Positions 1-40,981 of a DNA stretch of 40,981 bases are shown one piece after another. Position numbers and translations under genes: made by a program. The DNA lies in the sequence record NC_025445.1; one strand, 5' to 3'. The first letter of the stretch is position 1. Each line of letters starts with the position of its first letter. Under the pieces are notes generated by a model that saw only the letters and a program-made list of their open reading frames with translations, was not told the DNA's origin and ran no database searches. This DNA is from Escherichia phage J8-65.

Positions 1-259
1 TCGACCCGAAGGAGCGCCTGCGCCCCCGTACGCCTGTGCGCGTGCGCGTGCATGACGTGTGCGCATTATGCGTGCGTGCCTGCGCGTGCGGTATTGCTCG
101 CGTGCGTGCGGTATAGTTCGCGCGTGCCCGTTTCCATTGTCGCGGTGTGGTGCTGTGTGGTGCTGCGTCCTGCTGCTGCGTGCTGCGCCACTGCTACCAC
201 TGGACGCGCCTGCGCTGGGCTGCTGGTGCTGGGCGGTGCTGCTGTGTGTATCGGTGGCT
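1..259. repeat. left direct terminal repeat (DTR)
   Basis: bases 1-259 are identical to 40723-40981; GT-rich, A-poor; typical T7-supergroup terminal redundancy. Confidence 0.85.
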
Positions 260-686
260 GGGCGCGGGGCTATCTATCTTTTTTCGTGGCGCTGCTGTCA
301 TAGCTCGCTTGCTGTGTGTGCTGTGTGTCGTGTGCGGTACTGTGTGCCATCCTGCTACGCTACCGCCTGCGCCCTGTGTCTCCAGCTCATCGCGTCACTG
401 TGTAACACTCTGATACTTGCTATCCGTTCGCGTTCACTCAATCGTCACTCCGTGTCTCTTTCGTTCCGCTCCGCGCTCCGCTATCGCACTGCGTGCTGCG
501 TCGCTTACGCTGCGTATCGCTACAGCTATACACTACAGTTACTTTCATTTAATCATTGATTTAAAAGGATTTATTTACGGTTATTCTGCTGTGTGTAAGC
601 TACGCAATAACCTATTCAATCAAATATTTATTATCAATGATTCCAGTGACTTATCGCCTTTTTGAGCTATTCAGTGAAAATAATTC

Positions 687-715
687 TTGCAATGTTGTTT
701 GTGATTTGCTGTAAT
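687..715 (+). promoter_or_regulatory. sigma70-like early promoter (TTGCAA-N17-TGTAAT)
   Basis: -35 TTGCAA 687-692, 17-nt spacer, -10 TGTAAT 710-715, in AT-rich block upstream of first genes. Confidence 0.5.
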
Positions 716-792
716 TCATCTCGCCGGACGACACAGCGTTAACGTGTCGGACGGTGTAAGACGGTAACACTGTTCTTTAACAATCTGGTGTG

Positions 793-821
793 TTGACAAG
801 GCAAGCTCACTATGCTGTAAT
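793..821 (+). promoter_or_regulatory. sigma70-like early promoter (TTGACA-N17-TGTAAT)
   Basis: consensus -35 TTGACA 793-798, 17-nt spacer, -10 TGTAAT 816-821. Confidence 0.6.
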
Positions 822-928
822 GCTTCCAGTCAGTCAGCAAGCTAAACAGTCATGGATAAAGACGTTAAAACCCACGTAGGCGAACTGATACGGTTTAATC
901 ATCTCAGAATGGGCGCTGATTAAAACGG

Positions 929-957
929 TTGACAGGATGAAACGAGTATGCTGTAAT
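929..957 (+). promoter_or_regulatory. sigma70-like early promoter (TTGACA-N17-TGTAAT)
   Basis: -35 TTGACA 929-934, 17-nt spacer, -10 TGTAAT 952-957; same architecture as 793-821. Confidence 0.6.
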
Positions 958-1007
958 GCACACCAGATTGACAGGCAGCAAGCCAGTCAGTCAGAAGTAA
1001 AAAGTAG

Positions 1008-1036
1008 TTGACAAGCTGAATACGATGTGATGTAAT
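1008..1036 (+). promoter_or_regulatory. sigma70-like early promoter (TTGACA-N17-TGTAAT)
   Basis: -35 TTGACA 1008-1013, 17-nt spacer, -10 TGTAAT 1031-1036. Confidence 0.6.
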
Positions 1037-1467
1037 CAGCACCGAGTTGAAAGGTTGCAAAACAACCTGCTCTGAGTGAACGTAAACTGGCCACGTAGTG
1101 TCACGGCCTCATGGGTATCCGGCGCAGCTAGGAACTGGTGAGGGCACCGCCGAAAGGCAATAGGGGTAGCGCCCGGTGCAAGGGAACGGAGAAGCGCGAT
1201 AGACGCAGCGCAGTATCAGCACAATCCCGAACGTCTTATAAGGCGCGGAGTGTAGCGGGTAGGTAGGCAAGCTGGTAACGGTGAGCCGGACTGCTGGAGG
1301 ACTCCTGAGAGTGGATGCAGACAATATCCACGGCGCGAAATGGGCGGGGCGATTTTTCAGGGTAGTGAATCCGACAAGCCAATCAATGCCAACGAGTGCA
1401 GACTGTACGGCGCGTCACAATGGGTTCACTATCCACCTGAAAATAGCCAACAACTGGAGAAATCAAT

Positions 1468-1857
1468 ATGTACCGTATCTATGCAAGCGCATATCGTCAG
1501 GGCAACGCTGAGTCAGTCAATCTGGCACTGCACTGCAAGGCACTGCGAACGGTGCAGGACATGTTCGGAGTGATTCCGGTCACACTGACAGGCAAGTTCG
1601 ACAATGCGTATGAGTTACGCATGGTCTTCCCTGTCGATGGAATCTACGAAATCCGGCAGGCTGTTAAGCTGTTTTGTAAAGCCTTCGAACAGGACTGCAT
1701 CATGGTAGTGACCAAAGACGACGATGCAATCTTCATGGACTCACCGTATCCGGGCAAGCCTGCTGGCAAGCTGGTCAGCAAGACTAACGAGGAAATGGAA
1801 GCCGGGCAGTTCACTGCTTGGACTTACGACGGTGAGCAATTTTGGGTAGTGGAGTAA
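1468..1857 (+). CDS. hypothetical early protein (129 aa)
   Basis: ATG start, GGAG upstream, first ORF after promoter cluster. Confidence 0.6.
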   Translation: MYRIYASAYRQGNAESVNLALHCKALRTVQDMFGVIPVTLTGKFDNAYELRMVFPVDGIYEIRQAVKLFCKAFEQDCIMVVTKDDDAIFMDSPYPGKPAGKLVSKTNEEMEAGQFTAWTYDGEQFWVVE

Positions 1858-1868
1858 GGAGCATGACC

Positions 1869-1943
1869 ATGTCCACTGCACTGTGTGTTATTGCGGCGGC
1901 GTGCTGGGTCATTGACCAGCGACTGAGCCGTCGCCGTGGCTGA
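1869..1943 (+). CDS. putative 24-aa hydrophobic micropeptide
   Basis: AAGGAG 7 nt upstream of ATG 1869; MSTALCVIAAACWVIDQRLSRRRG (hydrophobic core, basic tail); below ORF-track cutoff. Confidence 0.2.
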   Translation: MSTALCVIAAACWVIDQRLSRRRG

Positions 1944-1949
1944 TAGCCT

Positions 1950-1971
1950 ATAGCGTCCTACGGGGCGCTAT
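1950..1971 (+). promoter_or_regulatory. post-stop GC-rich stem-loop
   Basis: ATAGCG-tcctacgggg-CGCTAT after micro-ORF stop. Confidence 0.3.
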
Positions 1972-2004
1972 GTGAAATCAACCAAACCGACAAGGGGTAA
2001 CATC

Positions 2005-2532
2005 ATGACTACTGTAAAATACACCGCGTTCAAAGACGCTGCGGCGCTGGATAAAGCTATCGAAGCGACCGTTAAAAAGGCGCACTCCCTCCGTAACGAG
2101 ATTCAGAACGTTGCGGTCGGCATTATCCTGCACGCTTACCATCACGGCGACTATACCCGTGCTGAATCCTTCACCAACCAACTGGGTGACGGCGTTCGTG
2201 GTAAAGCACTGGTTGACTGGTTCGTCCAGTTCGGCGGCCTGATTGTAGGCGAGCATGAGGGTGGCAAGTCTGGCTTCGTTGGCTGGAAAGGTGCCGACTT
2301 CATCAAGAAGAACATCGACAAGGCGAAAGCCACGATGTGGTGGACTTGCAAGCCGGAAGCGGCCTTCGAAGGCTTCGACCTGCAAGAAGCGCTGGACAAG
2401 CTCATTGCCAAAGCTGAGAAGGCAATGAACAAGGCCAATGAGCTGCGCCACGAAGGGCGCGATGAGGATGCGAACAAGGTTGTCGTGCCTCAGAACGTGC
2501 TGGATGGGCTGCGCAAGCTGAAAGCTGCGTGA
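2005..2532 (+). CDS. hypothetical early protein (175 aa)
   Basis: ATG 2005 with AAGGGG RBS (ORF-track start 1972 is GTG); function unknown. Confidence 0.6.
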   Translation: MTTVKYTAFKDAAALDKAIEATVKKAHSLRNEIQNVAVGIILHAYHHGDYTRAESFTNQLGDGVRGKALVDWFVQFGGLIVGEHEGGKSGFVGWKGADFIKKNIDKAKATMWWTCKPEAAFEGFDLQEALDKLIAKAEKAMNKANELRHEGRDEDANKVVVPQNVLDGLRKLKAA

Positions 2533-2539
2533 TTACTGA

Positions 2540-2563
2540 GAAGGCATTCAAGCGAGTGCCTTC
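2540..2563 (+). promoter_or_regulatory. post-stop GC-rich stem-loop
   Basis: TGATTACTGA then GAAGGCA-ttcaagcgag-TGCCTTC, 7-bp stem. Confidence 0.4.
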
Positions 2564-2610
2564 GATTGTAACCACGGCAATAATGCCACAATCCTAACTG
2601 GAGACTTAAT

Positions 2611-2922
2611 ATGTCCAAATTAACTGTAGTCCTGCTGAACAACCTGCCTGCCTCTGCTTTCGGTGAAGGCGTTAAACTGGAAGACGTGCAGAGCAAGCAG
2701 TACGTCGCAATCACTGACGGTCAGGGCTACCTGATTGCAGGCATCAACAAGGACGGCGACTCGAAGGAAGAAATCGAAGCGCACTTCCGTGAACAGGGTC
2801 TGGATGCTGACATGCCGCTGGCGCTCATCGCCATGCTGAACGGCGTGCCTTTCGTTGACGCTGCCGACGTTGTAGGCGCAGATATCGACGAGGTTTACAG
2901 CGTCGAGTCTGACGACGAGTAA
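2611..2922 (+). CDS. small acidic early protein, paralog 1 (103 aa)
   Basis: strongly acidic with C-terminal ESDDE; shares a D-x-Q-x-x-L...KDGD motif with next two genes. Confidence 0.65.
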   Translation: MSKLTVVLLNNLPASAFGEGVKLEDVQSKQYVAITDGQGYLIAGINKDGDSKEEIEAHFREQGLDADMPLALIAMLNGVPFVDAADVVGADIDEVYSVESDDE

Positions 2923-2936
2923 GCTGGGCTAACTGA

Positions 2937-2959
2937 CAGGCCATTCGATGAGTGGCCTG
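2937..2959 (+). promoter_or_regulatory. post-stop GC-rich stem-loop
   Basis: AACTGA then CAGGCCA-ttcgatgag-TGGCCTG. Confidence 0.4.
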
Positions 2960-2988
2960 AATTGTTATTCCAAGCCAAAGGAGGCTGC

Positions 2989-3258
2989 ATGATTCGTGTG
3001 AGTTTGGTCAAAGACGCATCCGGCAAGGTGGTATTCTACCTGCTGGACAATCAGAAAGGGCTGACCCTGCTGGCGTACGTCAAAGACGGCGACCCAAGTA
3101 CGCAGGAGATTCTGGACTTCCTGATTGGTCAAGAGACCTATAGCGAGCTGCTGTTTGACGTGTCTGGCCGCACCGAAGCTGCCAATATTGAGTACGTCGA
3201 GGAACAGCACGGCGAGGTGACGCTGGAGTTCATCGGCACCATCCCGTTCGCTGAGTGA
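2989..3258 (+). CDS. small acidic early protein, paralog 2 (89 aa)
   Basis: ATG 2989 after AAGGAGG (ORF-track start 2962 is TTG); LDNQKGLTLLAYVKDGD motif. Confidence 0.65.
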   Translation: MIRVSLVKDASGKVVFYLLDNQKGLTLLAYVKDGDPSTQEILDFLIGQETYSELLFDVSGRTEAANIEYVEEQHGEVTLEFIGTIPFAE

Positions 3259-3265
3259 TTACTGA

Positions 3266-3287
3266 CAGGCCATCTGCGGGTGGCCTG
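3266..3287 (+). promoter_or_regulatory. post-stop GC-rich stem-loop
   Basis: TGATTACTGA then CAGGCCA-tctgcggg-TGGCCTG; same stem as 2937-2959. Confidence 0.4.
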
Positions 3288-3328
3288 AACTGTACTCACC
3301 CAACAATCAAAGTCTAAGGAGACTTATC

Positions 3329-3604
3329 ATGGCAAATGGTTACATCGTACGTGGCACCGAATCAAACAAAGTCGTGGCCTACGCACTGGAAAAGAGCGGC
3401 CACTATCTGGCGCACACTCGCCGCGACAACGAGCCGACCGATAGCGAAGGCGTGTTGGCCGAACTGAAACGCGAAGGCGTGCCGCCTGAACTCATCTTCA
3501 TCCTGTCTGGTATCCAGATTCACGAACTGCAAGATGCAGCCAAGCGTGTGTGGGGTGAGGGCGTAGAGCTGGAGCACATCGGTATCGTGGACGAAGCTGC
3601 GTAA
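3329..3604 (+). CDS. small acidic early protein, paralog 3 (91 aa)
   Basis: TAAGGAG RBS; LEKSGHYLAHTRRDNEP motif related to paralogs 1 and 2. Confidence 0.6.
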   Translation: MANGYIVRGTESNKVVAYALEKSGHYLAHTRRDNEPTDSEGVLAELKREGVPPELIFILSGIQIHELQDAAKRVWGEGVELEHIGIVDEAA

Positions 3605-3619
3605 CAGCGGGATTGACTC

Positions 3620-3643
3620 AAGCCAGTGTCTCGGCGCTGGCTT
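3620..3643 (+). promoter_or_regulatory. post-stop GC-rich stem-loop
   Basis: AAGCCAG-tgtctcggcg-CTGGCTT. Confidence 0.35.
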
Positions 3644-3680
3644 TATGGCAATACTGCCCCATCCATTTGAGGATTTAAAC

Positions 3681-3932
3681 ATGGCTAAGTTCGAACTGGT
3701 AAAATTCATCGACCCGTCTGACAACTCTGAGACCTTTGCTCAGTTCACCGACGACCGCACACAGGTGGCTATCTACACCAGTGAGTCGGCGGCGCGTGAC
3801 AACTTCGGTGAAGAGATATTCTTCGATTCGGTTGAAGAAGTGCGCAAAGGTGGCGGCCCTTACGCTGATGCACTGGAAGCGGCGCTGGAAGAAGGCGAAG
3901 TCGTTGACACTCTGGACGACGACGAAGAGTAA
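3681..3932 (+). CDS. small highly acidic early protein (83 aa)
   Basis: ATG 3681 with GAGGA RBS; about 24 D/E vs 6 K/R; C-terminal DTLDDDEE. Confidence 0.6.
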   Translation: MAKFELVKFIDPSDNSETFAQFTDDRTQVAIYTSESAARDNFGEEIFFDSVEEVRKGGGPYADALEAALEEGEVVDTLDDDEE

Positions 3933-3944
3933 GCGTGACGCCCG

Positions 3945-3968
3945 GTTGCCTCCTTGCGAGGGGGCAAC
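3945..3968 (+). promoter_or_regulatory. post-stop GC-rich stem-loop
   Basis: GTTGCCTCC-ttgcga-GGGGGCAAC. Confidence 0.35.
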
Positions 3969-4004
3969 ATGGCAATCATGCCATAACCTACTGGAGTATT
4001 GAAC

Positions 4005-4418
4005 ATGACTAAACTCGTACTGATTCACGGCATCGCTGGTGAGAAATTTGACGACGGTATCTCTGCACCTGTGCTGGCGCTGGAAGGTGAAGAGACCTTC
4101 GCTGTGCTGCAAGGTCTGGCTGAGGGTAGCGATATGGTACTGGCATCAGAAACAATTATCGAACAAGCCAGCGCAATCCGTGAGGCCGAGCACCTGCGTG
4201 GTGTAGCCGCAACGCTCGGTCACTGCGCTGGTAACGGCGGCCTGCGTGGGCATTCGGTCGGCGGTGTATTCCCCTGCGTAATCTTCTCGAAGGGCAACCC
4301 ACATGTGCATCTCGACTGGTGTTTCCTCGCACCGAACGGCGATGAGTTCGACGGCTTCGTAAGTTATGAAGATGCGTATGCAGCCGCGCAACAATGGCTG
4401 GAGGAAAGAGAGGTATAG
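4005..4418 (+). CDS. hypothetical protein (137 aa)
   Basis: ATG 4005 with GGAG RBS (ORF-track start 3999 is TTG). Confidence 0.6.
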   Translation: MTKLVLIHGIAGEKFDDGISAPVLALEGEETFAVLQGLAEGSDMVLASETIIEQASAIREAEHLRGVAATLGHCAGNGGLRGHSVGGVFPCVIFSKGNPHVHLDWCFLAPNGDEFDGFVSYEDAYAAAQQWLEEREV

Positions 4419-4419
4419 T

Positions 4420-4716
4420 ATGAGCAGAAGTGCTAAGTGGGATGCGTTGGTTCAGTGGGTGAAGGACAGCTTCGGCCCACCACCACAGCGCGTGGAAGTT
4501 GCAGACCCTGAGCCATTCGAGTACGTGACCAAGACCAGTGAGCAACTGGAGATTGGTGACTACATAGTAGCGTACTCTGGTTATGTGCAGCGCATCGGTG
4601 CCGTCGAGTATGATGGCAAACGACTGGTCGTTACGAAGGCAGGCCATGCTCCTGAGTATGAGTTCTACGCCTACGAGAATGACAAGTTCTCTATCCGTAA
4701 AGTAAAAGGTAAATAA
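4420..4716 (+). CDS. hypothetical protein (98 aa)
   Basis: ATG 4420 after GAGGAAAGAGAGG RBS, abuts upstream stop. Confidence 0.55.
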   Translation: MSRSAKWDALVQWVKDSFGPPPQRVEVADPEPFEYVTKTSEQLEIGDYIVAYSGYVQRIGAVEYDGKRLVVTKAGHAPEYEFYAYENDKFSIRKVKGK

Positions 4717-4719
4717 ATC

Positions 4720-5235
4720 ATGGCTATTAACTTCGCAACATTTGACAAACAGCAGTTCGAAGTAACCAAACGTCTGGCCGCAGAGATTGACGAGCGCCCG
4801 GAAGTATCCGACGTGATTGAATTTCGTGGTGGCTTCCTGCCAAAGATGACGTACGTGGCAGCAATTAAGGCAGGCCGACTGGACATGGTGGATATCATCC
4901 CGCCGACCCGCACTGGTGCCATCATCGCACGCAACATCACACTGCTGGCTGGTCTCGGCACCAAGTCTCTGGATGCAGCAGGTGAAACAGAGCGTGCTGT
5001 TCAGCTCCGCATGGCGGCAACGTTGGCAATCCGTTTCGCATGTGAAGAGACGGTACACGCCAGCTACCACGACTGGTATCAGGCATGTGAGAATGTGCCT
5101 GCCGACCTGAGCGAGACGCACGCAAGTGTGCTGTTCGCTGGCGAGGTACTGGATGCCATGCTGCAACAGTTGAAGGAAGGACTGGGTGAGCTGCTGGCGG
5201 CGGCGAGCGAGGTGAAACGTGCAACGCTCCACTGA
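4720..5235 (+). CDS. hypothetical protein (171 aa)
   Basis: ATG start, tight packing with flanking genes. Confidence 0.6.
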   Translation: MAINFATFDKQQFEVTKRLAAEIDERPEVSDVIEFRGGFLPKMTYVAAIKAGRLDMVDIIPPTRTGAIIARNITLLAGLGTKSLDAAGETERAVQLRMAATLAIRFACEETVHASYHDWYQACENVPADLSETHASVLFAGEVLDAMLQQLKEGLGELLAAASEVKRATLH

Positions 5236-5239
5236 TTTA

Positions 5240-5392
5240 GTGGTGCGTAAATCACCCACTGGTAAACACTGGTGGGTGGTGTACGCTGACCTACCGGGCA
5301 GACCGTTTGCTGTCCGTGACACAAAGTGGCAGGCCGAAGCTAAGCGTGATGACCTGCAACGTATCGTAAACAGAATGGGAGTACCAGCATGA
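5240..5392 (+). CDS. possible small protein (about 50 aa, GTG start)
   Basis: open frame fills the gap between flanking genes and ends in ATGA overlap with next start; no clear RBS. Confidence 0.25.
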   Translation: MVRKSPTGKHWWVVYADLPGRPFAVRDTKWQAEAKRDDLQRIVNRMGVPA

Positions 5393-5631
5393 CCATCATC
5401 AAAGACGAAAGCAAACTCGAAGTCGGTTCCGCATACAAGCTGAGCGGCGGTGTGTTCTGTTCGGTTGCACTGGACGTGAACGCAGGCAAGTTCATCTTCA
5501 AAGGGCGTGACGAATACAACCCGGACATGCTGCACTTCGAAGGTGTTACCGATGGCCGGGCGCAGTTCTTGTACCCGGAGCGGCTGGCCGATGGGCAGTA
5601 TGATTTGTCCAAGGTTGAAACAATCAAGTGA
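5389..5631 (+). CDS. hypothetical protein (80 aa)
   Basis: ATG start, GGGAG upstream. Confidence 0.55.
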   Translation: MTIIKDESKLEVGSAYKLSGGVFCSVALDVNAGKFIFKGRDEYNPDMLHFEGVTDGRAQFLYPERLADGQYDLSKVETIK

Positions 5632-5663
5632 CTTACTCGTGGCATTTCGTGAGAGATGCCACC

Positions 5664-5903
5664 ATGAAAGTAACTGTATTGCACAACATCGGAGGAGATA
5701 TGCTCAAAGTAATATTGTTGTTCCTGCTTCTGGTAATTATTTGGGGAGCGTTATGGGTGGGTCTTGCATCACTGGTGCTTATCCCTGCGGTCGGTGAGTC
5801 AGCCACTTCAACACTGGGCACACTGCTCGGCATGTTGGTGGGCTGGGGTCTGATGCAGTTGAGCCTGAGTGTAGGCCAGAATCGGGGGTGGATTAAATGG
5901 TGA
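5664..5903 (+). CDS. small membrane protein with two predicted TM helices (79 aa)
   Basis: ATG 5664; VILLFLLLVIIWGALWVGLASLVLIPAV and LGTLLGMLVGWGLMQLSLSV hydrophobic segments. Confidence 0.55.
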   Translation: MKVTVLHNIGGDMLKVILLFLLLVIIWGALWVGLASLVLIPAVGESATSTLGTLLGMLVGWGLMQLSLSVGQNRGWIKW

Positions 5904-6337
5904 AGCCTAAGTATAAAGTCGGGGATGAAATCGTAGGCGACGAAGGCACTGGCACCCGGTCGGGTAAGCTGAGTATCATCGCTTGGGTTAACCCTGACCG
6001 CCGAGCGTGGGAGCGTAGCGGGGAGACTCGTTACATCGTGAGCTGGATTGGTGAGCGCCTGAATGCGCAGCCGGATATCAGCCACTACAAATCTGACTGG
6101 CTGGAAGAGAACACCAGTCTGGTCAGCACGCCAGCCGAGAAGCGCGGTCGGTTCATGTGCTTGGTCGAAGGCAGCAACGCGCCGCCGAAGGTTGAGCACA
6201 TCACTGAGCGCGAGGCGCGTGAAGAAGCTGAACGTCTGGCAGAGCGGTGCGGAGGTACTGTCCGTGTGCTGCAAGTTGTGGCCAGCGTGAAGATGAAGAA
6301 GAAGATTCTGTACACACCGGACTGGGATAACGAATGA
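5897..6337 (+). CDS. hypothetical protein (146 aa)
   Basis: ATG start overlapping upstream stop. Confidence 0.55.
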   Translation: MVKPKYKVGDEIVGDEGTGTRSGKLSIIAWVNPDRRAWERSGETRYIVSWIGERLNAQPDISHYKSDWLEENTSLVSTPAEKRGRFMCLVEGSNAPPKVEHITEREAREEAERLAERCGGTVRVLQVVASVKMKKKILYTPDWDNE

Positions 6338-12136: not shown

Positions 12137-13038
12137 CTAAGCCGAGTGTATTGAATCGCTTTAACACCATCGTTGAACAGTTCGTTGAAGAAGAAGGCGT
12201 AGACTTTAACGAAGCCGTGTCCGGTGGCGGCGGCAAGCTGATGCCGGAAGGTAAGGCACTGGCTCGCCTGATTCAGTATGTGGAAATCGGGCCGCAGCCT
12301 ATTAAGCAGGACGCAAGCAAACCGCCTGTCAATAAGTTCTTCCTCAAGTTCGCAGTGTGGGGTAAGGGTAAGGACAAGACCTCAACCTACCACGATGTGG
12401 TGGATGGCAAGATGGTGCCGGGCATTGTGCGCACGCAGTTCATTGCTGTTAAGAAAGACCTCAACAGCAAGTCCGGCGCGTACAAACTGTTCAAGCGTAT
12501 GAACCCGGAGAAGACTGCGAAGCACTTCGCTCAGCTCCTGAACAATACGTTCATCCTGCCTATCGTGCATAACGAATCAGGCGAGGGCGAGAACAAGAAG
12601 GTGTACGCCAACATCGACCTTGAGAACATCAGCCTCGCGGTTAACCCGGTGACTGATGAGCCGTTCGATGTGCCGGAGGTTGAGGACGAGTCGCTGTTCA
12701 AGCTGTTCCTGTGGAACCGTCCGACTAAGGAAGACTGGGAATCCCTGTACATTGAAGGGAAGAACGACGAGGGCAAATCCAAGAACTGGATTCAGGATGC
12801 TCTGCTGTCCAGCCCTGAGTATCCCGGCTCTCCGCTTGACCTGCTGCTGAATGGCGGCGGCGCTGGCTCTGCAATCTCTGAGCTGCCTGAGCTGGAAGAG
12901 GCGCAGGAGGAAGCGAAGGAAGTAACGCCGGAGCCGGAGGAACTGCCTACCAAGAAGGGTGGTAAGAAGGGTGCGACCGAGACCTCGCCGGAACCTGACG
13001 TGACTGGTGATGCTGACTTTGGCCTGCCGAGCCTGTAA
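12133..13038 (+). CDS. hypothetical protein with acidic C-terminal tail (301 aa)
   Basis: ATGA overlap with polymerase stop; acidic PE-rich C-terminus ending GDADFGLPSL; possible ssDNA-binding role is speculative. Confidence 0.55.
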   Translation: MTKPSVLNRFNTIVEQFVEEEGVDFNEAVSGGGGKLMPEGKALARLIQYVEIGPQPIKQDASKPPVNKFFLKFAVWGKGKDKTSTYHDVVDGKMVPGIVRTQFIAVKKDLNSKSGAYKLFKRMNPEKTAKHFAQLLNNTFILPIVHNESGEGENKKVYANIDLENISLAVNPVTDEPFDVPEVEDESLFKLFLWNRPTKEDWESLYIEGKNDEGKSKNWIQDALLSSPEYPGSPLDLLLNGGGAGSAISELPELEEAQEEAKEVTPEPEELPTKKGGKKGATETSPEPDVTGDADFGLPSL

Positions 13039-13046
13039 CTGATAAG

Positions 13047-13066
13047 GGCACAGGGAAGTGCCTTGG
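13047..13066 (+). promoter_or_regulatory. post-stop GC-rich stem-loop
   Basis: TAACTGATAAGGGCACagggaaGTGCCTTgg directly after stop; same ACTGA-hairpin pattern as early-region hairpins. Confidence 0.35.
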
Positions 13067-13073
13067 AGGTTTT

Positions 13074-17165: not shown

Positions 17166-17174
17166 GGGGATGTG

Positions 17175-19604
17175 ATGGATTTGCTGGCAGAACAGATTCG
17201 ACTGGAAGAAGAGGCGCGTGCCCGTCACCGGGCAGGCTGGTTAGATAACGTACGAGATGCGATAGACTCAGGCCGCGCCTCGGCGGTGCCACTGTTGCAG
17301 CGAGCGATGGTTGAGGCATACCCCACTGTCGAAGCTGCAATGCTGGATATCCTGAACGAAACTACTCGTGGGTTCGGTGCGCAGTACCGCACGTATCTTC
17401 GTGAAGTTGGGGCCAAGACCTGTGCGTCTCTGGCCCTGAGCATGGCGGTGTCCGGCGCGACCGGGCGTACCGCCGTGACTCAACTGCTCCGCGAGATGGG
17501 GCAGGCAATGATGGCTGAGGTAGTCTATGCGAGAGCTGAGAAGGCTGGCAAGCGCGAGGCTGCGTACATGGAGAAGGTTCGCCGTGACGTGAACAAGTCC
17601 AAGTCCAAGTCGCCGAACCACATCTACAACAAGGCACGCGCTGCCTCAGCCAACGTTGGTGTCGAAACTGAAATCCTGCCACAGCGTGCGCTCATCACAA
17701 TCGGCAAGTTGATGATGCGTGCTGTCGAACCGACTGGTCTGGTCAAGACTGTCCGAGTCGGCGGTAGCTTGAAGAACCGGGCGACGGCGCACTTCGCTCT
17801 GCATGACGATGTGCTCATCATGCTTGAGGATTGGATGAAGCTGCCACACCTCGGCATCAACTGTTACCCACCGCTGATTGTGCCGCCAGCTCAAATCAAT
17901 GCGAATGGCTTCGGCGGTATGTGGCACTCTCCGGGGCAGGCAGCGACGTATGTGGCAATCAGCAAGCTCAAGCACCCGGCGTACCGTAAGTTAGGTATTG
18001 ACCCACTGCCAGTGATTGAGCCGTGCATGATGCTGTCGAGCGTTCCGTTCCGCGTGAACAAGATGGTGCTGGAGTTCCTGCAAGCCAACCGAACCGGGGT
18101 GATGGGGTTGCCTGTTGCGCCAGTAGAACCGAAGCTGCCGTTCACTATCCCGGAGGGCGTAACGTTCAGCCAGTACATCAGCAAGTTCCCGGCTGAGATG
18201 CAGCAGCGTATGGATGCTGAGGCACACGAGTTCAAGGTCAAGACTCGCATCTACCACAATGACATGAAGAAGTTCACCACGCAGATTCAGGCACTGAGCA
18301 GTGCGCTGCGCGAGGCTGAGCAGTACAAAGTGTACGAGCGAATCTACCTGCCGACGTACGCCGACACCCGTGGCCGTTGCTACTATGCCTCAGCCCTGAA
18401 CCCGCAAGGCATTGACGCAATTCGTGCTTTGCTTGAACTGGCCGACCCGGTGCCGTTGGGTAAGGAGGGTCTGTTCTGGTTGAAGGTTCATGTGGCCAAC
18501 TGCTTCGGCTATGACGCTACAGACTTTGAAGACAGGGCAGCGTGGACTGATAAGACAATGCCGCGACTGCGCGAGGCTTGCCGTCTGCCGGAGGCATACG
18601 ACTCGTTCTGGTCTGAGGCTGACAGCCCACTGTGTGCATGGGCGGCTGCGGTAGAGCTGGTGCGTGCGCTGGATAGCGGGAACCCGGAAGAGTATCCGTG
18701 CCGCGTGGTGACGCAATGGGATGCAACATGCTCAGGTCTGCAACATCTCTCCGCAATGCTGCGCGACGAGGTGGGTGGTGCTGCGGTCAACCTGATTGAT
18801 TCCGTAGGACGTAAGGCAGACATCTACGTTAAGACCGCTACAGCGGCTCTGGAGGCGTTAAAGGAAGCAGAGGCAACCAACCCTACGGTCTTGGGTTCGT
18901 GGCTCGTACAGACGGGCATAGAGCGCGGCATGGCCAAGAAGCCTGTGATGACTTATGTGTACGGTGCGACACGCCACGGCATGGTGGATTACTATGCTCT
19001 GTATTTGCGAGAGCACAACACTCCGCTGCCGGAAGGGTACACCCTGTTCCAGTGTGCAATGTACATCGCCGGGTTCATGTGGGATGCAATTCCTCGCGTG
19101 GTGCCGAAGGCTGCTGAGCTGATGGCGTGGCTGCAAGCTATCGCATCGGAGGCAGCGGCTAACGGGGAGTACGTGGAGTTCACTGCTCCGTCTGGTCTGC
19201 GCATGGTGAACATGTATCAGGCTCACAAAGAAACCACTATGGGTATCAAGCTGATGGGTGTTCATGCCATCAAGCTGCGCGAGTACATCGACAAGCCAGA
19301 CGGTCGCAAATGTGCGGCTGCGATTGCTCCGAATTTTGTACACGCGATGGATGCCAGCCACATGATGAAAGTTCTGTGGGAGATGTGGAATAACGGGATT
19401 TACATGGTGTCTATCCATGATTCATTCGGTGTTGCAGCGGCTCATGCAGGTCTACTGCACAAAGTCATCCGTGAAAAGTTCGTGCAGATGTACGAGGAAC
19501 ATGACCCGATTCAACAACTTGCTGTGAGATATTCTAAGGAAGCTCCGGCGCGGGGTCAGTTGGATATCAACGAGGTCAAGAAATCCTCCAAATTCTTCTG
19601 CTAA
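17175..19604 (+). CDS. single-subunit DNA-directed RNA polymerase, T7-like (809 aa)
   Basis: ATG 17175 after AAGGGGA; WDATCSGLQHLSAM, KKPVMTYVYGAT and SIHDSFG match T7 RNAP motifs A, B, C. Confidence 0.92.
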   Translation: MDLLAEQIRLEEEARARHRAGWLDNVRDAIDSGRASAVPLLQRAMVEAYPTVEAAMLDILNETTRGFGAQYRTYLREVGAKTCASLALSMAVSGATGRTAVTQLLREMGQAMMAEVVYARAEKAGKREAAYMEKVRRDVNKSKSKSPNHIYNKARAASANVGVETEILPQRALITIGKLMMRAVEPTGLVKTVRVGGSLKNRATAHFALHDDVLIMLEDWMKLPHLGINCYPPLIVPPAQINANGFGGMWHSPGQAATYVAISKLKHPAYRKLGIDPLPVIEPCMMLSSVPFRVNKMVLEFLQANRTGVMGLPVAPVEPKLPFTIPEGVTFSQYISKFPAEMQQRMDAEAHEFKVKTRIYHNDMKKFTTQIQALSSALREAEQYKVYERIYLPTYADTRGRCYYASALNPQGIDAIRALLELADPVPLGKEGLFWLKVHVANCFGYDATDFEDRAAWTDKTMPRLREACRLPEAYDSFWSEADSPLCAWAAAVELVRALDSGNPEEYPCRVVTQWDATCSGLQHLSAMLRDEVGGAAVNLIDSVGRKADIYVKTATAALEALKEAEATNPTVLGSWLVQTGIERGMAKKPVMTYVYGATRHGMVDYYALYLREHNTPLPEGYTLFQCAMYIAGFMWDAIPRVVPKAAELMAWLQAIASEAAANGEYVEFTAPSGLRMVNMYQAHKETTMGIKLMGVHAIKLREYIDKPDGRKCAAAIAPNFVHAMDASHMMKVLWEMWNNGIYMVSIHDSFGVAAAHAGLLHKVIREKFVQMYEEHDPIQQLAVRYSKEAPARGQLDINEVKKSSKFFC

Positions 19605-19687
19605 TTTAGTCTTATATTTCTTGCACTTAATGAAAGTAACTGTTCTGGTATACCCAGATTACTCTCGTAGTGCATTGGAGATTCTCT

Positions 19688-19870
19688 ATGAAAGACTCAC
19701 CATTAGACAGAGTGACGTTCAACAAAGGACAACTAGCTCTCTTAGAGAAAGCATTCGGTACATGGGAGAAGGTAGGGAAGACCATCACCCATGAATCAGA
19801 TATCTCACTACTGAATAGAGAAGCAGGTAAACAGGACGTGTTGGACTTCATCCGTGAAAGGACTGTGTAA
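19688..19870 (+). CDS. hypothetical protein (60 aa) in low-GC island
   Basis: ATG 19688 with GGAG RBS; atypical low-GC codon usage. Confidence 0.5.
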   Translation: MKDSPLDRVTFNKGQLALLEKAFGTWEKVGKTITHESDISLLNREAGKQDVLDFIRERTV

Positions 19871-20289
19871 TGAAAGTATCTGTAGTGGACAACATACATC
19901 ACACCACGATGCCAATCGACATTCGGATTGCTGTAGCCAAAGGTATACAGGAAGAACGCCAATGGTCTGATTTACCGTGGGATGTGATAGTAGACGCCAT
20001 GTATGATGCCACCGCCAACGGATGCACTGATGTGTATGTCCACGATTCTGACGGTGCTCTCATGGGCTGTGCTCATCTCGGTGAGCTGTTCGATATTCAT
20101 GTGGGGCCGTGTGCCGTTGTAATGGCTATGTATGTATGGCCCCAGTATCGCAACCGGGGAGTGACCCGTCTCATCCTCCGCGAACTCAAACGCGCTGCCC
20201 GGCAAGCTGGGTTGCGCTGGTGCGGTTACTCCCACATGGTACGTCCTTATGTTCAGGAATACCGATTCATTGATTTGGAGAAACCGTAA
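19870..20289 (+). CDS. hypothetical protein, possible GNAT-like fold (139 aa)
   Basis: VVMAMYVWPQYRNRGVTRLILREL resembles GNAT motif A region; low-GC. Confidence 0.45.
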   Translation: MKVSVVDNIHHTTMPIDIRIAVAKGIQEERQWSDLPWDVIVDAMYDATANGCTDVYVHDSDGALMGCAHLGELFDIHVGPCAVVMAMYVWPQYRNRGVTRLILRELKRAARQAGLRWCGYSHMVRPYVQEYRFIDLEKP

Positions 20290-23369: not shown

Positions 23370-24362
23370 ATGGCAGCTAACTCCTATACCCCGAACCAGT
23401 TCCGTCCACACTGGGGTGGCGCGAACTCTGACAACGACATTCACCTTGAGGTGTATGACCGTGACGTGCAGACCCAGTTCATTTACAACTCCATCTTCCG
23501 TTCCGGTCTGACCAACTTCAAGTCTGTGGCTAACCAGTCCAACACTTGGCGTGGCGACCGCCTCGGCAGCGTGACCGTGAAAGGTCGTAAATCTGGTGAG
23601 TCTCTGGTGAACCAGCCAGTTCGCTCTGAGAAGCTGATTGTCACCGTGGATACCGTGTCTTACATTCGTATCCCGATTGACTATCAGGACGACTGGACTG
23701 CGCCGGACTTCCGTGCTGAGCTGACCCGTAACATGGGTACTTCTCAGGCGAAGGCGTTCGACCAAGCGCACGTAATTCAGCTCCAGAAGTGTGCTGACTT
23801 CGTGCCTCCGACTTCTCTGGCTGGCGCATTCAACGCTGGTATCAAAGAGAAGATTACGCTGACTGGCACCGTCGCTTCTGAGGAAGACGACGCAAGCGCA
23901 ATCGTGCATGGCCACAAGAAAGTTATCGAAGCGTTCATTCGCCGCGATGCCGACCTTGGCCGTCTGGTTACGCTGATTGACCCGGCGTGGTTCAGCATCC
24001 TGCTGGAGCACAAGAAACTGATGAACGTTGAGTTCACTGGTGGCCGTGGTGTGAACGACTTCGCAATGCGCCGCGTTGCGTACGTCAACGGTATTCGCCT
24101 GATTGAGAGCAATGCTTTCCCGCAGGCTGCAATCACCGACCACATCCTCGGTGCTGACTTCAACGTCACCGCCGACGAAATCAAGCGCAAGCTGATTGTG
24201 TTCGACCCGTCTCTGGCTCTCGTTACCGTCGAAGCCCAACCGCTGTTCAACCGCGTGTGGGATGACGAGAAAGAGATGACCAACGTTCTGGATAGCTTCC
24301 ACATGTACACCGTGGGTCAGAAGCGTCCTGACGTGGTGGGTGTCGTAACCACCGAAGCCTAA
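23370..24362 (+). CDS. major capsid protein (330 aa)
   Basis: size and position as T7 gp10; followed by a terminator-like hairpin. Confidence 0.85.
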   Translation: MAANSYTPNQFRPHWGGANSDNDIHLEVYDRDVQTQFIYNSIFRSGLTNFKSVANQSNTWRGDRLGSVTVKGRKSGESLVNQPVRSEKLIVTVDTVSYIRIPIDYQDDWTAPDFRAELTRNMGTSQAKAFDQAHVIQLQKCADFVPPTSLAGAFNAGIKEKITLTGTVASEEDDASAIVHGHKKVIEAFIRRDADLGRLVTLIDPAWFSILLEHKKLMNVEFTGGRGVNDFAMRRVAYVNGIRLIESNAFPQAAITDHILGADFNVTADEIKRKLIVFDPSLALVTVEAQPLFNRVWDDEKEMTNVLDSFHMYTVGQKRPDVVGVVTTEA

Positions 24363-24372
24363 TGGCAAACTC

Positions 24373-24410
24373 GAAGCCCTTCTCTGAGGGGCTTCTATGA
24401 TTGTCGTTAC
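24373..24410 (+). terminator. stem-loop after capsid gene (T-phi-like candidate terminator)
   Basis: GAAGCCC-ttctctgag-GGGCTTC 7-bp GC-rich stem (24373-24395) followed by U-rich tatgattgtcgtt. Confidence 0.5.
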
Positions 24411-40722: not shown

Positions 40723-40981
40723 TCGACCCGAAGGAGCGCCTGCGCCCCCGTACGCCTGTGCGCGTGCGCGTGCATGACGTGTGCGCATTATGCGTGCGTG
40801 CCTGCGCGTGCGGTATTGCTCGCGTGCGTGCGGTATAGTTCGCGCGTGCCCGTTTCCATTGTCGCGGTGTGGTGCTGTGTGGTGCTGCGTCCTGCTGCTG
40901 CGTGCTGCGCCACTGCTACCACTGGACGCGCCTGCGCTGGGCTGCTGGTGCTGGGCGGTGCTGCTGTGTGTATCGGTGGCT
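40723..40981. repeat. right direct terminal repeat (DTR)
   Basis: identical to 1-259; window ends at last repeat base so the true DTR could be longer. Confidence 0.85.

Follow-up and report, generated by a model that had tools for sequence, protein, structure and literature searches.

Stem-loops behind the early genes and the capsid gene of a Bonnellvirus are probable homologues of the T7 RNase III processing sites

What are the GC-rich stem-loops that follow the early-gene stop codons of Escherichia phage J8-65, and which machinery would read them? The window, that is, the whole stretch of 40,981 nucleotides analysed here (NC_025445.1), is a complete Bonnellvirus genome (Autographiviridae) with a phiKMV-like gene order and 259-bp terminal repeats. 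A strong plus-strand RNA hairpin was found in each of six consecutive early intergenic gaps (1944-4004), and the hairpins were numbered elements 1-6. Upstream of them, three sigma-70-type promoters, which parallel the T7 promoters A1-A3, were read directly from the sequence. They were missed by our promoter scan because its -10 pattern must have A as the second base.

-35 793-798 and -10 816-821, + strand: sigma-70-type promoter 1, TTGACA-N17-TGTAAT
-35 929-934 and -10 952-957, + strand: sigma-70-type promoter 2, TTGACA-N17-TGTAAT
-35 1008-1013 and -10 1031-1036, + strand: sigma-70-type promoter 3, TTGACA-N17-TGTAAT

Host RNA polymerase would initiate at these three strong promoters (793-1036) to give a single long early transcript, and elements 1-6 would be carried on this polycistronic RNA. 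The phage RNA polymerase gene (17172-19604) and the first plus-strand copy of the candidate phage promoter (5664) both lie downstream of elements 1-6.

The original prediction had placed a family of stem-loops after six early-gene stops and after position 13038. The stems that it quoted are present (GAAGGCA/TGCCTTC at 2540-2563, CAGGCCA/TGGCCTG at 2937-2959 and 3266-3287), as are further early stems at 3620-3643, 3945-3968 and 1949-1972, and the shared TGATTACTGA flank occurs exactly twice, at 2530 and 3256. The membership of the family changed: the early-gene hairpins stayed in, the stem after 13038 dropped out, two overlooked members (5627-5677 and 24361-24410) were added, and element 1 proved to be of a different class from the other five. 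The E-values listed below come from a covariance model built from seven phage T7 RNase III sites alone (T7-only model) or from one built from 20 Bonnellvirus elements alone (Bonnellvirus model), and the predicted cut positions were transferred by alignment from T7 coordinates.

1937-1984, + strand: element 1, a KP34/SP6-type hairpin; fold z-score -4.7; lower stem 1937-1944/1977-1984, which includes the TGA stop (1941-1943) of a 26-aa ORF; upper stem 1949-1958/1963-1972; loop UACG
2528-2578, + strand: element 2, a T7-type R site; T7-only model E 0.052; fold z-score -5.4; upper stem 2540-2549/2554-2563; loop AAGC; TGA stop 2530-2532 within the lower stem; predicted cut after 2566; GGCAATAATGCC comes next at 2576-2587
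2925-2974, + strand: element 3, a T7-type R site; T7-only model E 3e-5; fold z-score -5.2; upper stem 2937-2946/2950-2959; loop GAU; predicted cut after 2962
3254-3302, + strand: element 4, a T7 R1-like site; T7-only model E 5e-4; fold z-score -4.3; upper stem 3266-3274/3279-3287; loop UGCG; TGA stop 3256-3258 within the lower stem; predicted cut after 3290
3608-3658, + strand: element 5, of the T7 R0.5/R1.1/R18.5 type; T7-only model E 0.036; fold z-score -2.5; upper stem 3620-3629/3634-3643; loop CUCG; flanks GACUCAAG...CUUUAUGG; predicted cut after 3646, coinciding with the 5′ edge of GGCAATACTGCC (3647-3658)
3934-3985, + strand: element 6, a probable R site; Bonnellvirus model E 0.027; fold z-score -3.4; lower stems 3934-3938/3976-3980 and 3940-3942/3971-3973; upper stem 3945-3954/3959-3968; loop UGCG; predicted cut after 3970, at the 5′ edge of GGCAATCATGCC
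5627-5677, + strand: the 5627 site, a T7-type R site; T7-only model E 3.6e-5; fold z-score -4.6; upper stem 5639-5648/5653-5662; TGA stop 5629-5631 within the lower stem; 3′ lower strand overlapping the repeated 14-mer ATGAAAGTAACTGT (5664-5677); predicted cut after 5665
24361-24410, + strand: the capsid site, a T7-type R site directly after the major capsid gene (stop codon 24360-24362); T7-only model E 7e-7; fold z-score -5.7; upper stem 24373-24382/24386-24395; predicted cut after 24398
13039-13073, + strand: the stem after 13038 (GGCAC at 13047), present but not a family member; z-score -1.3; 22 of 200 shuffles fold as well; no match at E <= 10 with either model

Once G·U pairs were counted, every element showed a two-tier structure, in which an upper stem of 9-10 bp closed by a 3-4-nt loop is separated by a 3-4/4-5-nt internal loop from a lower stem of 7-9 positions, usually with the upstream stop codon inside the latter. 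The 6-9-bp stems and 8-10-nt loops first described correspond to a count of Watson-Crick pairs only. The upper hairpins had energies of -14.4 to -16.4 kcal/mol, and the MFE and centroid folds agreed for all eight elements (17-19 pairs each). The proposed folding-energy check, run against 200 shuffles, gave z-scores of -2.5 to -5.7 for the eight 50-nt elements, with only 0-1 of the 200 shuffles folding as well, a result well outside chance expectation. All elements lie on the plus strand, start at or a few nucleotides from a stop codon, and leave 24-44 nt to the next start codon. A conserved U·G pair, often followed by U-A, stands beside the tri- or tetraloop; of 20 elements, 18 have U·G as upper-stem pair 8 and 11 have U-A as pair 9, as compared with a distal box whose positions were deduced from the text of PMC1540722. 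The R1.1 motif UUC/GAG was found in elements 2 and 3, the 5627 site and the capsid site, while elements 4-6 deviate from it. Published requirements of RNase III comprise about two helical turns, an internal loop that limits cutting to one strand, at least 11 bp from cut to loop and a UA/UG distal box (PMC1540722), and the internal loop of R1.1 is 4/5 nt (PMC6121014). In its helical turns and internal loop the architecture of the elements matches these requirements, and it may do so in the distal box and the distance from cut to loop as well.

Homology to the T7 sites was found in both directions. The T7 processing sites R0.3, R0.5, R1, R1.1, R1.3, R4.7 and R18.5, as well as the coordinates used for them, are those reportedly given by Dunn & Studier 1983, and the coordinates were checked here for structural consistency. 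When the whole genome was searched on both strands with filters off, the T7-only model gave six plus-strand matches at E < 10 (24361-24410, 2925-2974, 5627-5677, 3254-3302, 3608-3658 and 2528-2578; E 7e-7 to 0.05) and nothing beyond these six elements on that strand. Each match begins from 2 nt before to 4 nt after the upstream stop codon. The capsid site was the best match in the whole genome, elements 2 and 5 were marginal (E about 0.04-0.05), and elements 1 and 6 were not detected by this model. The Bonnellvirus model, run on the 39.9-kb T7 genome, returned R18.5, R1.1, R0.5, R0.3, R4.7 and R1 as its top matches (E 4e-10 to 5e-5), then R6.5 (E 0.012), with R1.3 and R3.8 as weaker matches. 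Moreover, element 4 aligned by BLASTN to the R1 hairpin of T7 (3111-3138) at 92.9% over 28 nt, or 26 of 28 bases, and this match recurs in about 137 T7-like records. This reciprocal homology, in sequence plus structure, strongly supports RNase III-type processing and 3′ stabilisation, two of the roles first put forward, as the putative functions. The sequence requirements of RNase III are loose, so common ancestry of the elements, or their transfer, may account for the similarity, which is not proof of cleavage. An Rfam scan of the whole genome at gathering thresholds and an E-value scan of positions 1-6000 returned nothing relevant; this is uninformative, since the T7 genome is likewise without an Rfam match.

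Across the 20 T7-type elements, 91.8% of cells were paired and 17 of 19 pairs changed on both sides, a level reached by none of 500 shuffles, and slid controls were paired at 34-44%. Both helices covary, with 99% and 84% of cells paired. The Bonnellvirus model scored 46-55 bits on the plus strand and 15 bits or less on the minus strand. The hairpins were also found conserved in related phages: in smaasur, Lidtsur, mellemsur, altidsur and forsur, homologous elements occupy the gaps between the early genes, the 5627 element also lies between genes in four of them (smaasur, Lidtsur, altidsur and forsur), a counterpart of element 6 is present in Lidtsur, and element 2 has a 95%-identical island in Pantoea phage LIMEzero. 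In Lidtsur, the sole match of the T7 model in 35 kb (E 7e-8) lies after the annotated major capsid gene and carries a GCAA loop. A host REP/MITE-like repeated palindrome was rejected, as element 4 matched nothing in a set of 5,426 complete E. coli genomes.

Taken together, these comparisons make it highly probable that elements 2-6, the 5627 site and the capsid site are T7-type RNase III processing and 3′-stabilising signals, homologues of R0.3, R0.5, R1, R1.1, R4.7 and R18.5. They would thus be a known kind of element, most likely reported here for the first time in this phage group; in literature searches that paired RNase III with phiKMV-like phages, the Autographiviridae or the Autographivirinae, a vibriophage DdmABC study was the only relevant find. 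From the structures, covariation, strand specificity, position and reciprocal T7 homology observed, we infer cleavage, the cut positions and the stabilising effect as follows. Between successive genes the early RNA would fold into a two-tier hairpin of about two helical turns, and E. coli RNase III would bind the stacked helices and nick the 3′ strand within the internal loop. The upstream mRNA would be left with a terminal hairpin of -14 to -16 kcal/mol that would block 3′-to-5′ exonucleases, and the mRNA downstream would be freed, its new 5′ end lying 24-44 nt ahead of the start codon. The capsid site would do likewise for the abundant late capsid message. In T7, one RNase III nick leaves a protective 3′ hairpin, so that the processing-site and stabilising-hairpin roles are the same mechanism there. 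T7 grows without RNase III (PMC6938266), and any phenotype may therefore be small.

The likeness to the T7 R sites covers the two-tier hairpin with its 9-10-bp upper stem, the asymmetric internal loop, the stop codon often in the lower stem, the intercistronic location on the coding strand behind a tandem of three host promoters, and the common sequence blocks ACUCAAGG...CCUUUAUGA and ACAGGYCAUCUGCGGGUGGCCUGAA, and covariance models detect either set from the other. In contrast to T7, the Bonnellvirus carrier has a phiKMV-like order with a late RNA polymerase gene, its sites follow almost every small early gene (six in 2 kb) with none before the first gene, and one site lies behind the capsid gene, a place taken in T7 by the terminator Tphi. 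The lower stems are also shorter than in T7, several with a conserved GGCAAUNNUGCC strand, and cleavage is a prediction here. T7 R-site-like hairpin sequences are likewise dispersed in vibriophage VIB04, another member of the Autographiviridae; the VIB04 palindromes were studied as DNA triggers of DdmABC (PMC11707656), whereas we read the elements here as RNA signals.

Element 1 stands apart from this family. It was not detected by the Bonnellvirus T7-type model or the T7-only model, and no copy occurs in T7. Its core reproduces exactly the published 'Kp34likevirus' consensus AGCCTATAGCGTCCTACGGGGCGCTATGTGAA, which shares its early intergenic position, was predicted to be a phage promoter or alternatively a nick site in KP34-like phages (Eriksson et al. 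2015, PMC4411677), and is annotated 'promoter' in some GenBank records. Unlike that published promoter, element 1 is a covarying RNA hairpin with a variable yet complementary lower stem: 14 of 19 pairs change on both sides (11 copies from at least 5 phage lineages), and its model (R3) scored 74 bits on the plus strand and 12 bits on the minus strand. SP6, Drulisvirus, Bonnellvirus and PhiM1 show hardly any variation in the conserved internal loop AGCC/GUGAA and in most of the upper stem, and the terminal loop varies (UACG, UGCG, UAUG or UUCG). The compensatory stem changes and the invariant U·G pairs fit an RNA structure rather than a duplex promoter. At least 302 phage records contain the 32-nt motif (Drulisvirus, Bonnellvirus, SP6-like, PhiM1-like and Arno160-like), and among these matches it is limited to Autographiviridae of Enterobacterales hosts. 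A pattern scan of IMG/VR for variants returned one locus, whose match was unlike the element 1 motif. The genes downstream of element 1 belong to at least five PHROG families (1448, 5277, 4571, 7657 and 8634), and an operator for one gene family was rejected on this ground.

With its architecture and intercistronic slot like those of the T7-type sites, element 1 represents a second, distinct class and is probably, though less certainly, a signal of the same type, for which cleavage by RNase III is presumed. A broader proposal can be made only tentatively, and we hold it somewhat less likely to be right than wrong: the motif would be an unrecognised class of intercistronic RNA signal, not a DNA signal, read by an Enterobacterales host factor, most likely RNase III through the AGCC/GUGAA loop, and together with the T7-type sites it would form a portable punctuation, passed from one phage subfamily to another, that marks the borders where early-gene cassettes are exchanged.

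Several other readings were weighed against RNase III processing. Element 1, and possibly others, might not be a substrate, being bound instead by another host or phage RNA-binding factor, for example as a translational operator, or bound by RNase III and left uncut. Hairpins of the latter kind exist (PMC1540722), and besides the failure of both T7-type models to detect element 1 and its absence from T7, the near-invariance of its internal loop and upper stem is stricter than a helix alone needs. Yet element 1 shares the two-tier geometry of about 20 bp and the post-stop slot with T7-type sites in the same operons, the variety of gene families that it precedes speaks against a gene-specific operator, and its restriction to Autographiviridae of Enterobacterales hosts points to a shared host factor; we regard this reading as unlikely, if worth keeping in mind. 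Much less can be said for the elements acting as DNA, whether as promoters for the phage RNA polymerase, nick sites or single-stranded replication hairpins. This would accord with the KP34 prediction and GenBank labels (PMC4411677) and with the sensing of T7 RNase III-like palindromes as DNA by the DdmABC defence system (PMC11707656), but KP34 RNA polymerase gave no initiation or product in vitro on a template with the element 1 motif (PMC6834552), compensatory changes occur in both stems, on the opposite strand the invariant U·G pairs would become A·C mismatches, and the part resembling a nick consensus is the variable loop. We consider a DNA role very improbable. Pausing or termination of the phage RNA polymerase, the pausing having been among the roles first suggested, draws on the capsid site occupying the place of Tphi in T7-like phages; it found no support among the early elements, which follow the host promoters, precede both the phage RNA polymerase gene and the first plus-strand candidate phage promoter, and show no U-run of the class I terminator type, so that we give this reading hardly any credence.

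Could the hairpins be passive, as 3′ exonuclease barriers or weak, leaky terminators of host RNA polymerase, with no RNase III cut? They resemble Rho-independent terminators in being GC-rich hairpins just past a stop codon, the upper hairpins are stable (-14 to -16 kcal/mol), and element 3 passes a loose terminator filter. Against this, and as originally noted, no U-tract follows any of the quoted hairpins (tails GAUUGUAA, AAUUGUUA, AACUGUAC, UAUGGCAA and CAUGGCAA), and the 9 terminator-like sites observed do not exceed the 11.6 and 15.4 expected from shuffles, for which reasons intrinsic terminators were rejected. A passive hairpin would also have no need of the conserved, covarying lower stem and internal loop, termination at these points would shut off expression of the phage RNA polymerase gene and the replication genes further on, and the homologues of the elements in T7 are known cleavage sites; this explanation appears quite improbable. 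A little more plausible, but still improbable, is that the elements serve mainly as shared linkers for recombinational exchange of early-gene cassettes, their RNA role being secondary. In comparison with altidsur and forsur, nucleotide similarity in 2530-4130 lies almost entirely in islands of up to 75 nt at the hairpins, with different genes between them; one 137-nt match at 69% and two weak matches inside genes are the exceptions. Long blocks of homology stop at 1925/1946, 2530 and 2575, the edges of elements 1 and 2, identical element types flank different genes in different phages, and elements that are almost the same turn up in other genera, with LIMEzero, PhiM1 and T7 among the carriers. 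However, purifying selection on an RNA signal predicts conserved islands equally well, the G·U pairs and plus-strand specificity show selection at the RNA level, and recombination at the elements is hypothetical. The model for such linkers would be the PeSL (promoter-early-stem-loop) cassettes of T4-type phages, which Arbiol et al. 2010 reportedly described as an early sigma-70 promoter plus a stem-loop. There, too, repeated stem-loops split small early genes of unknown function, and the intervening genes differ among relatives; but PeSLs include an early promoter, whereas the elements here have none and are homologues of RNase III sites. A PeSL-type mobile cassette was rejected on the lack of promoter-like sites in the intergenic elements, the only match nearby (3676-3705, scoring 9 of 12) being at a gene start.

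RNase III sites are classic T7 biology and, to our knowledge, are almost never annotated outside close T7 relatives, and we know of no Rfam model for them. Reading the elements as RNase III signals would explain the regular spacing of about 70 nt between small early Bonnellvirus genes and gives single-nucleotide predictions for mRNA ends. A near-identical RNA signal, in one case matching at 26 of 28 bases, is common to phage subfamilies that otherwise show no DNA-level relationship between their genes, and this sharing bears on the movement of regulatory modules between phages. The same reading offers an alternative for a widespread motif of therapeutic Klebsiella phages, published as a promoter, then disproved and since unexplained, and it flags sequences that Lamassu/DdmABC-type defence can sense as palindromic DNA. 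The compact 50-nt elements are, in addition, candidate gene insulators for synthetic operons.

The repeated gene-plus-hairpin unit had also been taken to fit duplication of a cassette encoding acidic proteins, for which the evidence is weak. The small acidic early proteins fall in no family of Pfam or PHROG. Only g2989 and g3329 resemble each other, at a marginal level (35% over 51 aa, E 2e-4), and g2611 and g2989 show no similarity. The hairpins themselves resemble elements of T7 and of other genera as much as they resemble each other.

All stems quoted in the original prediction were found in the window. Scanning the whole genome for perfect stems of 6 bp or more, with 4 or more G-C pairs and a 3-12-nt loop, returned 45, five of which begin 7-15 nt past the stop codons at 2532, 2922, 3258, 3604 and 3932, while a sixth begins 10 nt past the stop codon of the capsid gene. 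Exact copies of TGATTACTGA were found at 2530 and 3256. On folding, the loops of 8-10 nt that had been described were narrowed by additional G·U and A-U pairs, giving true upper stems of 9-10 bp with loops of 3-4 nt and energies that vary little (-14.4 to -16.4 kcal/mol). A small internal loop separates the upper stem from a lower stem, which usually includes the upstream stop codon, and the fold z-scores of the 50-nt elements were -2.5 to -5.7. The stem after 13038, which had been placed in the same family, behaved like shuffled sequences (z -1.3) and was detected by no model. Two members had been missed, one at 5627-5677 and one at 24361-24410, directly 3' of the major capsid gene.

We folded the early region of T7 around its RNase III cleavage sites (890, 1468, 3138, 5887 and 6448, with 13892 and 36856 as the late sites; Dunn and Studier 1983), and found the identical two-tier hairpin type with strikingly similar sequences. 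The T7 processing site R1 reads ACAGGTCATCTGCGGGTGGCCTGAAT and element 4 of the window reads ACAGGCCATCTGCGGGTGGCCTGAAC; the flanks of T7 R0.5, R1.1 and R18.5 are ACTCAAGG...CCTTTATGA, and those of element 5 are GACTCAAGCC...GGCTTTATGG. A covariance model built from seven T7 sites only was run on both strands of the whole window with filters off, and the following matches were obtained (the early intergenic hairpins are numbered as elements 1-6):

2528-2578, + strand: element 2, E 0.05
2925-2974, + strand: element 3, E 3e-5
3254-3302, + strand: element 4, E 5e-4
3608-3658, + strand: element 5, E 0.036
5627-5677, + strand: additional member, E 4e-5
24361-24410, + strand: capsid site, E 7e-7

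The T7-only model gave no other + strand match at E < 10 in the whole window, and all six matches begin from 2 nt before to 4 nt after a stop codon. Applied to the early regions of five relatives, the same model identified 20 elements on the + strand. When a reciprocal model was built from 20 Bonnellvirus elements only, its top matches in the T7 genome were R18.5, R1.1, R0.5, R0.3, R4.7, R1 and R6.5, with no unrelated match above these seven R sites; R1.3 and R3.8 ranked lower and were weaker. In the window, the Bonnellvirus model added element 6 (3934-3985, + strand; E 0.027). BLASTN with element 4 matched T7 3111-3138 in about 137 T7-like records, and zero matches were found in 5,426 complete E. 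coli genomes.

Over the other 35 kb of the relative Lidtsur, the T7-only model gave one match (E 7e-8). It lies directly 3' of the gene annotated as major capsid, and this hairpin carries a GCAA loop, as in T7 R1.1. The capsid sites of the window and Lidtsur together indicate that the genus puts an R-type hairpin where T7 puts the terminator Tphi; a hairpin-plus-U-tract terminator was undetectable after the capsid gene in the window. We also observed further two-tier hairpins in early intergenic regions of SP6, at 3320-3391 and 1570-1619 (e.g. GACTTATAGAGCGTCATT...GATGGCGCTCAATTAAGT). They were scored weakly by the Bonnellvirus model (E 0.2-0.6) and may be diverged R sites.

The alignment of the 20 elements showed that 91.8% of cells were paired and that 17 of the 19 pairs had changed on both sides, values that none of 500 shuffles matched, while sliding the partner by 1-3 columns as a control left a pairing of only 34-44%. 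Covariation was present in both helices, with 99% pairing in the upper and 84% in the lower one. Pair 8 of the upper stem is a U·G wobble in 18 of the 20 elements, with U-A next to it in 11 of the 20, and T7 R1.1 has the same U·G then U-A arrangement beside its loop (AUUC-GCAA-GAGU). The Bonnellvirus model scored 46-55 bits on the + strand and at most 15 bits on the - strand. This asymmetry and the wobble pairs indicate that the + strand RNA is the object of selection.

Substrates of E. coli RNase III typically comprise two helical turns, for which a stack of short helices is enough; at least 11 bp are needed from the cut to the loop, internal loops restrict cutting to one phosphodiester, a UA/UG distal box promotes binding, and the 3' hairpin left by the enzyme guards against 3'-to-5' exonucleases (PMC1540722). 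T7 R1.1 is a 60-nt hairpin with an internal loop of 4/5 nt that undergoes in vivo cleavage between genes 1.0 and 1.1 (PMC6121014). The window elements show the structural properties of RNase III substrates. By alignment to T7, whose cut lies in UUAU^GA and GAAU^AG, we infer that RNase III would cleave after 2566, 2962, 3290, 3646, 3970, 5665 and 24398, that is, 32-42 nt past the upstream stop and 24-44 nt ahead of the next start, and that mRNA stability would be affected. Since RNase III is dispensable for T7 growth (PMC6938266), its effect is likely modulatory. The structure and the reciprocal T7 homology indicate that RNase III-type processing sites, the role that had been listed first, was essentially the right reading: judged from sequence, these hairpins most likely serve as RNase III processing and 3'-stabilising signals of the T7 type, at which cleavage is predicted. 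They join a well-known kind of signal, so far unannotated in Bonnellvirus.

The sequence GGCAATNNTGCC has three copies in the window (0.12 expected by chance) and 16 further copies in relatives. The window copies are as follows:

2576-2587, + strand: GGCAATNNTGCC just 3' of an R hairpin
3647-3658, + strand: GGCAATNNTGCC just 3' of an R hairpin
3971-3982, + strand: GGCAATNNTGCC just 3' of an R hairpin

GGCAATNNTGCC pairs with the upstream GCGTGATT/GCGGGATTG, a segment that comprises the stop codon and the final codons before it. The cut predicted for RNase III at elements 5 and 6 lies exactly at the 5' edge of GGCAATNNTGCC, and refolding after cleavage to a 5'-terminal mini-hairpin (GGCA-NNNN-UGCC) is therefore possible. 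Speculatively, this mini-hairpin might shield the downstream mRNA.

Compared with the relatives altidsur and forsur, window 2530-4130 has its DNA similarity almost entirely in hairpin islands of at most 75 nt, the exceptions being a 137-nt match at 69% and two weak matches inside genes, and the genes between the islands differ. Long homology blocks stop at 1925/1946, 2530 and 2575, positions that coincide with the borders of elements 1 and 2, and a stretch of Pantoea phage LIMEzero is 95% identical to element 2. Bonnellvirus genomes were described as differing chiefly in small hypothetical genes (PMC7552041). The pattern fits elements that serve as conserved 'punctuation' between exchangeable gene cassettes. 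However, the same islands of similarity would result if the RNA signal were under purifying selection, and we therefore put forward a recombination role of the elements as a hypothesis. Duplication of an acidic-protein cassette, which had also been suggested, was hardly borne out: only the small early genes g2989 and g3329 are similar, marginally so (E 2e-4). The small acidic proteins had no family match in Pfam or PHROG.

The exact direct terminal repeats of 259 bp (1-259 = 40723-40981) indicate that the window, at 40,981 bp, spans a complete linear phage genome. All long ORFs lie on the + strand. The closest database relative is smaasur (an Escherichia phage; genus Bonnellvirus, Autographiviridae) at 93.7% identity, and 93.3% was reported between smaasur and the type phage J8-65 (PMC7552041). 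The genes are arranged in phiKMV-like order, from small early genes through primase, helicase and DNA polymerase to an 810-aa ORF (17172-19604), which agrees in length and position with the RNA polymerase annotated in Lidtsur; the structural genes follow. The early genes are preceded by three tandem strong sigma-70-type promoters, the counterpart of T7 A1-A3, which our promoter consensus scan overlooked owing to its -10 box rule; TATGCTGTAATGC is identical in two of the three:

793-821: promoter 1, TTGACA-N17-TGTAAT, -35 box at 793
929-957: promoter 2, TTGACA-N17-TGTAAT, -35 box at 929
1008-1036: promoter 3, TTGACA-N17-TGTAAT, -35 box at 1008

Between the third promoter and the first gene lies a GC-rich non-coding leader of about 390-430 nt (1040-1467), which has a modest fold z-score (-2.3) and matched nothing in Rfam. 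Its conservation in mellemsur, altidsur and forsur is about 87%, and a similar gap, of 400 nt, is present in PhiM1. The 14-mer ATGAAAGTAACTGT, a candidate promoter core for the phage RNA polymerase, has exactly three perfect copies in the window and one variant:

535-548, - strand: exact
5664-5677, + strand: exact, directly adjoining the R-type hairpin 5627-5677
19630-19643, + strand: exact, in the gap that follows the RNA polymerase gene
19870-19883, + strand: one mismatch

Relatives carry ATTATGAAAGTAACTGT or ATTATGAAGGTGTCTAT in its place. T7 phi promoters likewise adjoin R sites, as ATGAAAGTAACTGT adjoins the 5627-5677 hairpin.

Element 1 (1937-1984, + strand) is of a different class from the T7-type elements. 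More than 160 Klebsiella phages with no other DNA similarity to the window match its segment 1943-1983, and a more sensitive search found the motif in 302 records (213 Klebsiella, 51 Pectobacterium and 20 Escherichia), with SP6, Cronobacter, Dickeya and Pantoea among the other carriers. In its core, element 1 does not differ from the 'Kp34likevirus' consensus, which was published as a predicted phage promoter (PMC4411677). However, KP34 RNA polymerase gave no transcription from this motif (PMC6834552), and no later explanation of it was found in the searchable literature. The motif is labelled 'promoter' in the Klebsiella phage GenBank records KP708985 (SU503; 3202-3239) and KX856662 (2981-3018). 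As KP34 RNA polymerase ignores the motif, this annotation is probably wrong.

We aligned 11 copies of element 1 from Bonnellvirus, SP6, Drulisvirus, PhiM1 and Arno160. They share a 10-bp upper stem with two invariant U·G pairs, a conserved AGCC/GUGAA internal loop, and a lower stem whose sequence varies in almost every lineage with complementarity kept (90.9% of cells paired; both-sided change in 14 of 19 pairs; covariation in all 8 lower-stem pairs). The class model scored 74 bits on the + strand of the window versus 12 bits on the - strand, and found no copy in T7. Genes downstream of the motif belong to at least five different PHROG families, and the motif shares operons with T7-type sites, e.g. 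in PhiM1, indicating that element 1 is a generic intercistronic RNA signal. From architecture and position only, the chances that RNase III processes it are about even. Our results here show an RNA role for a widespread motif that is probably mislabelled as a promoter, and we regard it as a more interesting residue of the analysis than the T7-type sites. In addition, an unannotated 26-aa ORF (MTMSTALCVIAAACWVIDQRLSRRRG), whose product has a basic tail and a hydrophobic segment, was observed at 1863-1943. The ORF is also conserved in relatives, within 'intergenic' DNA, and its stop codon is included in the lower stem of element 1.
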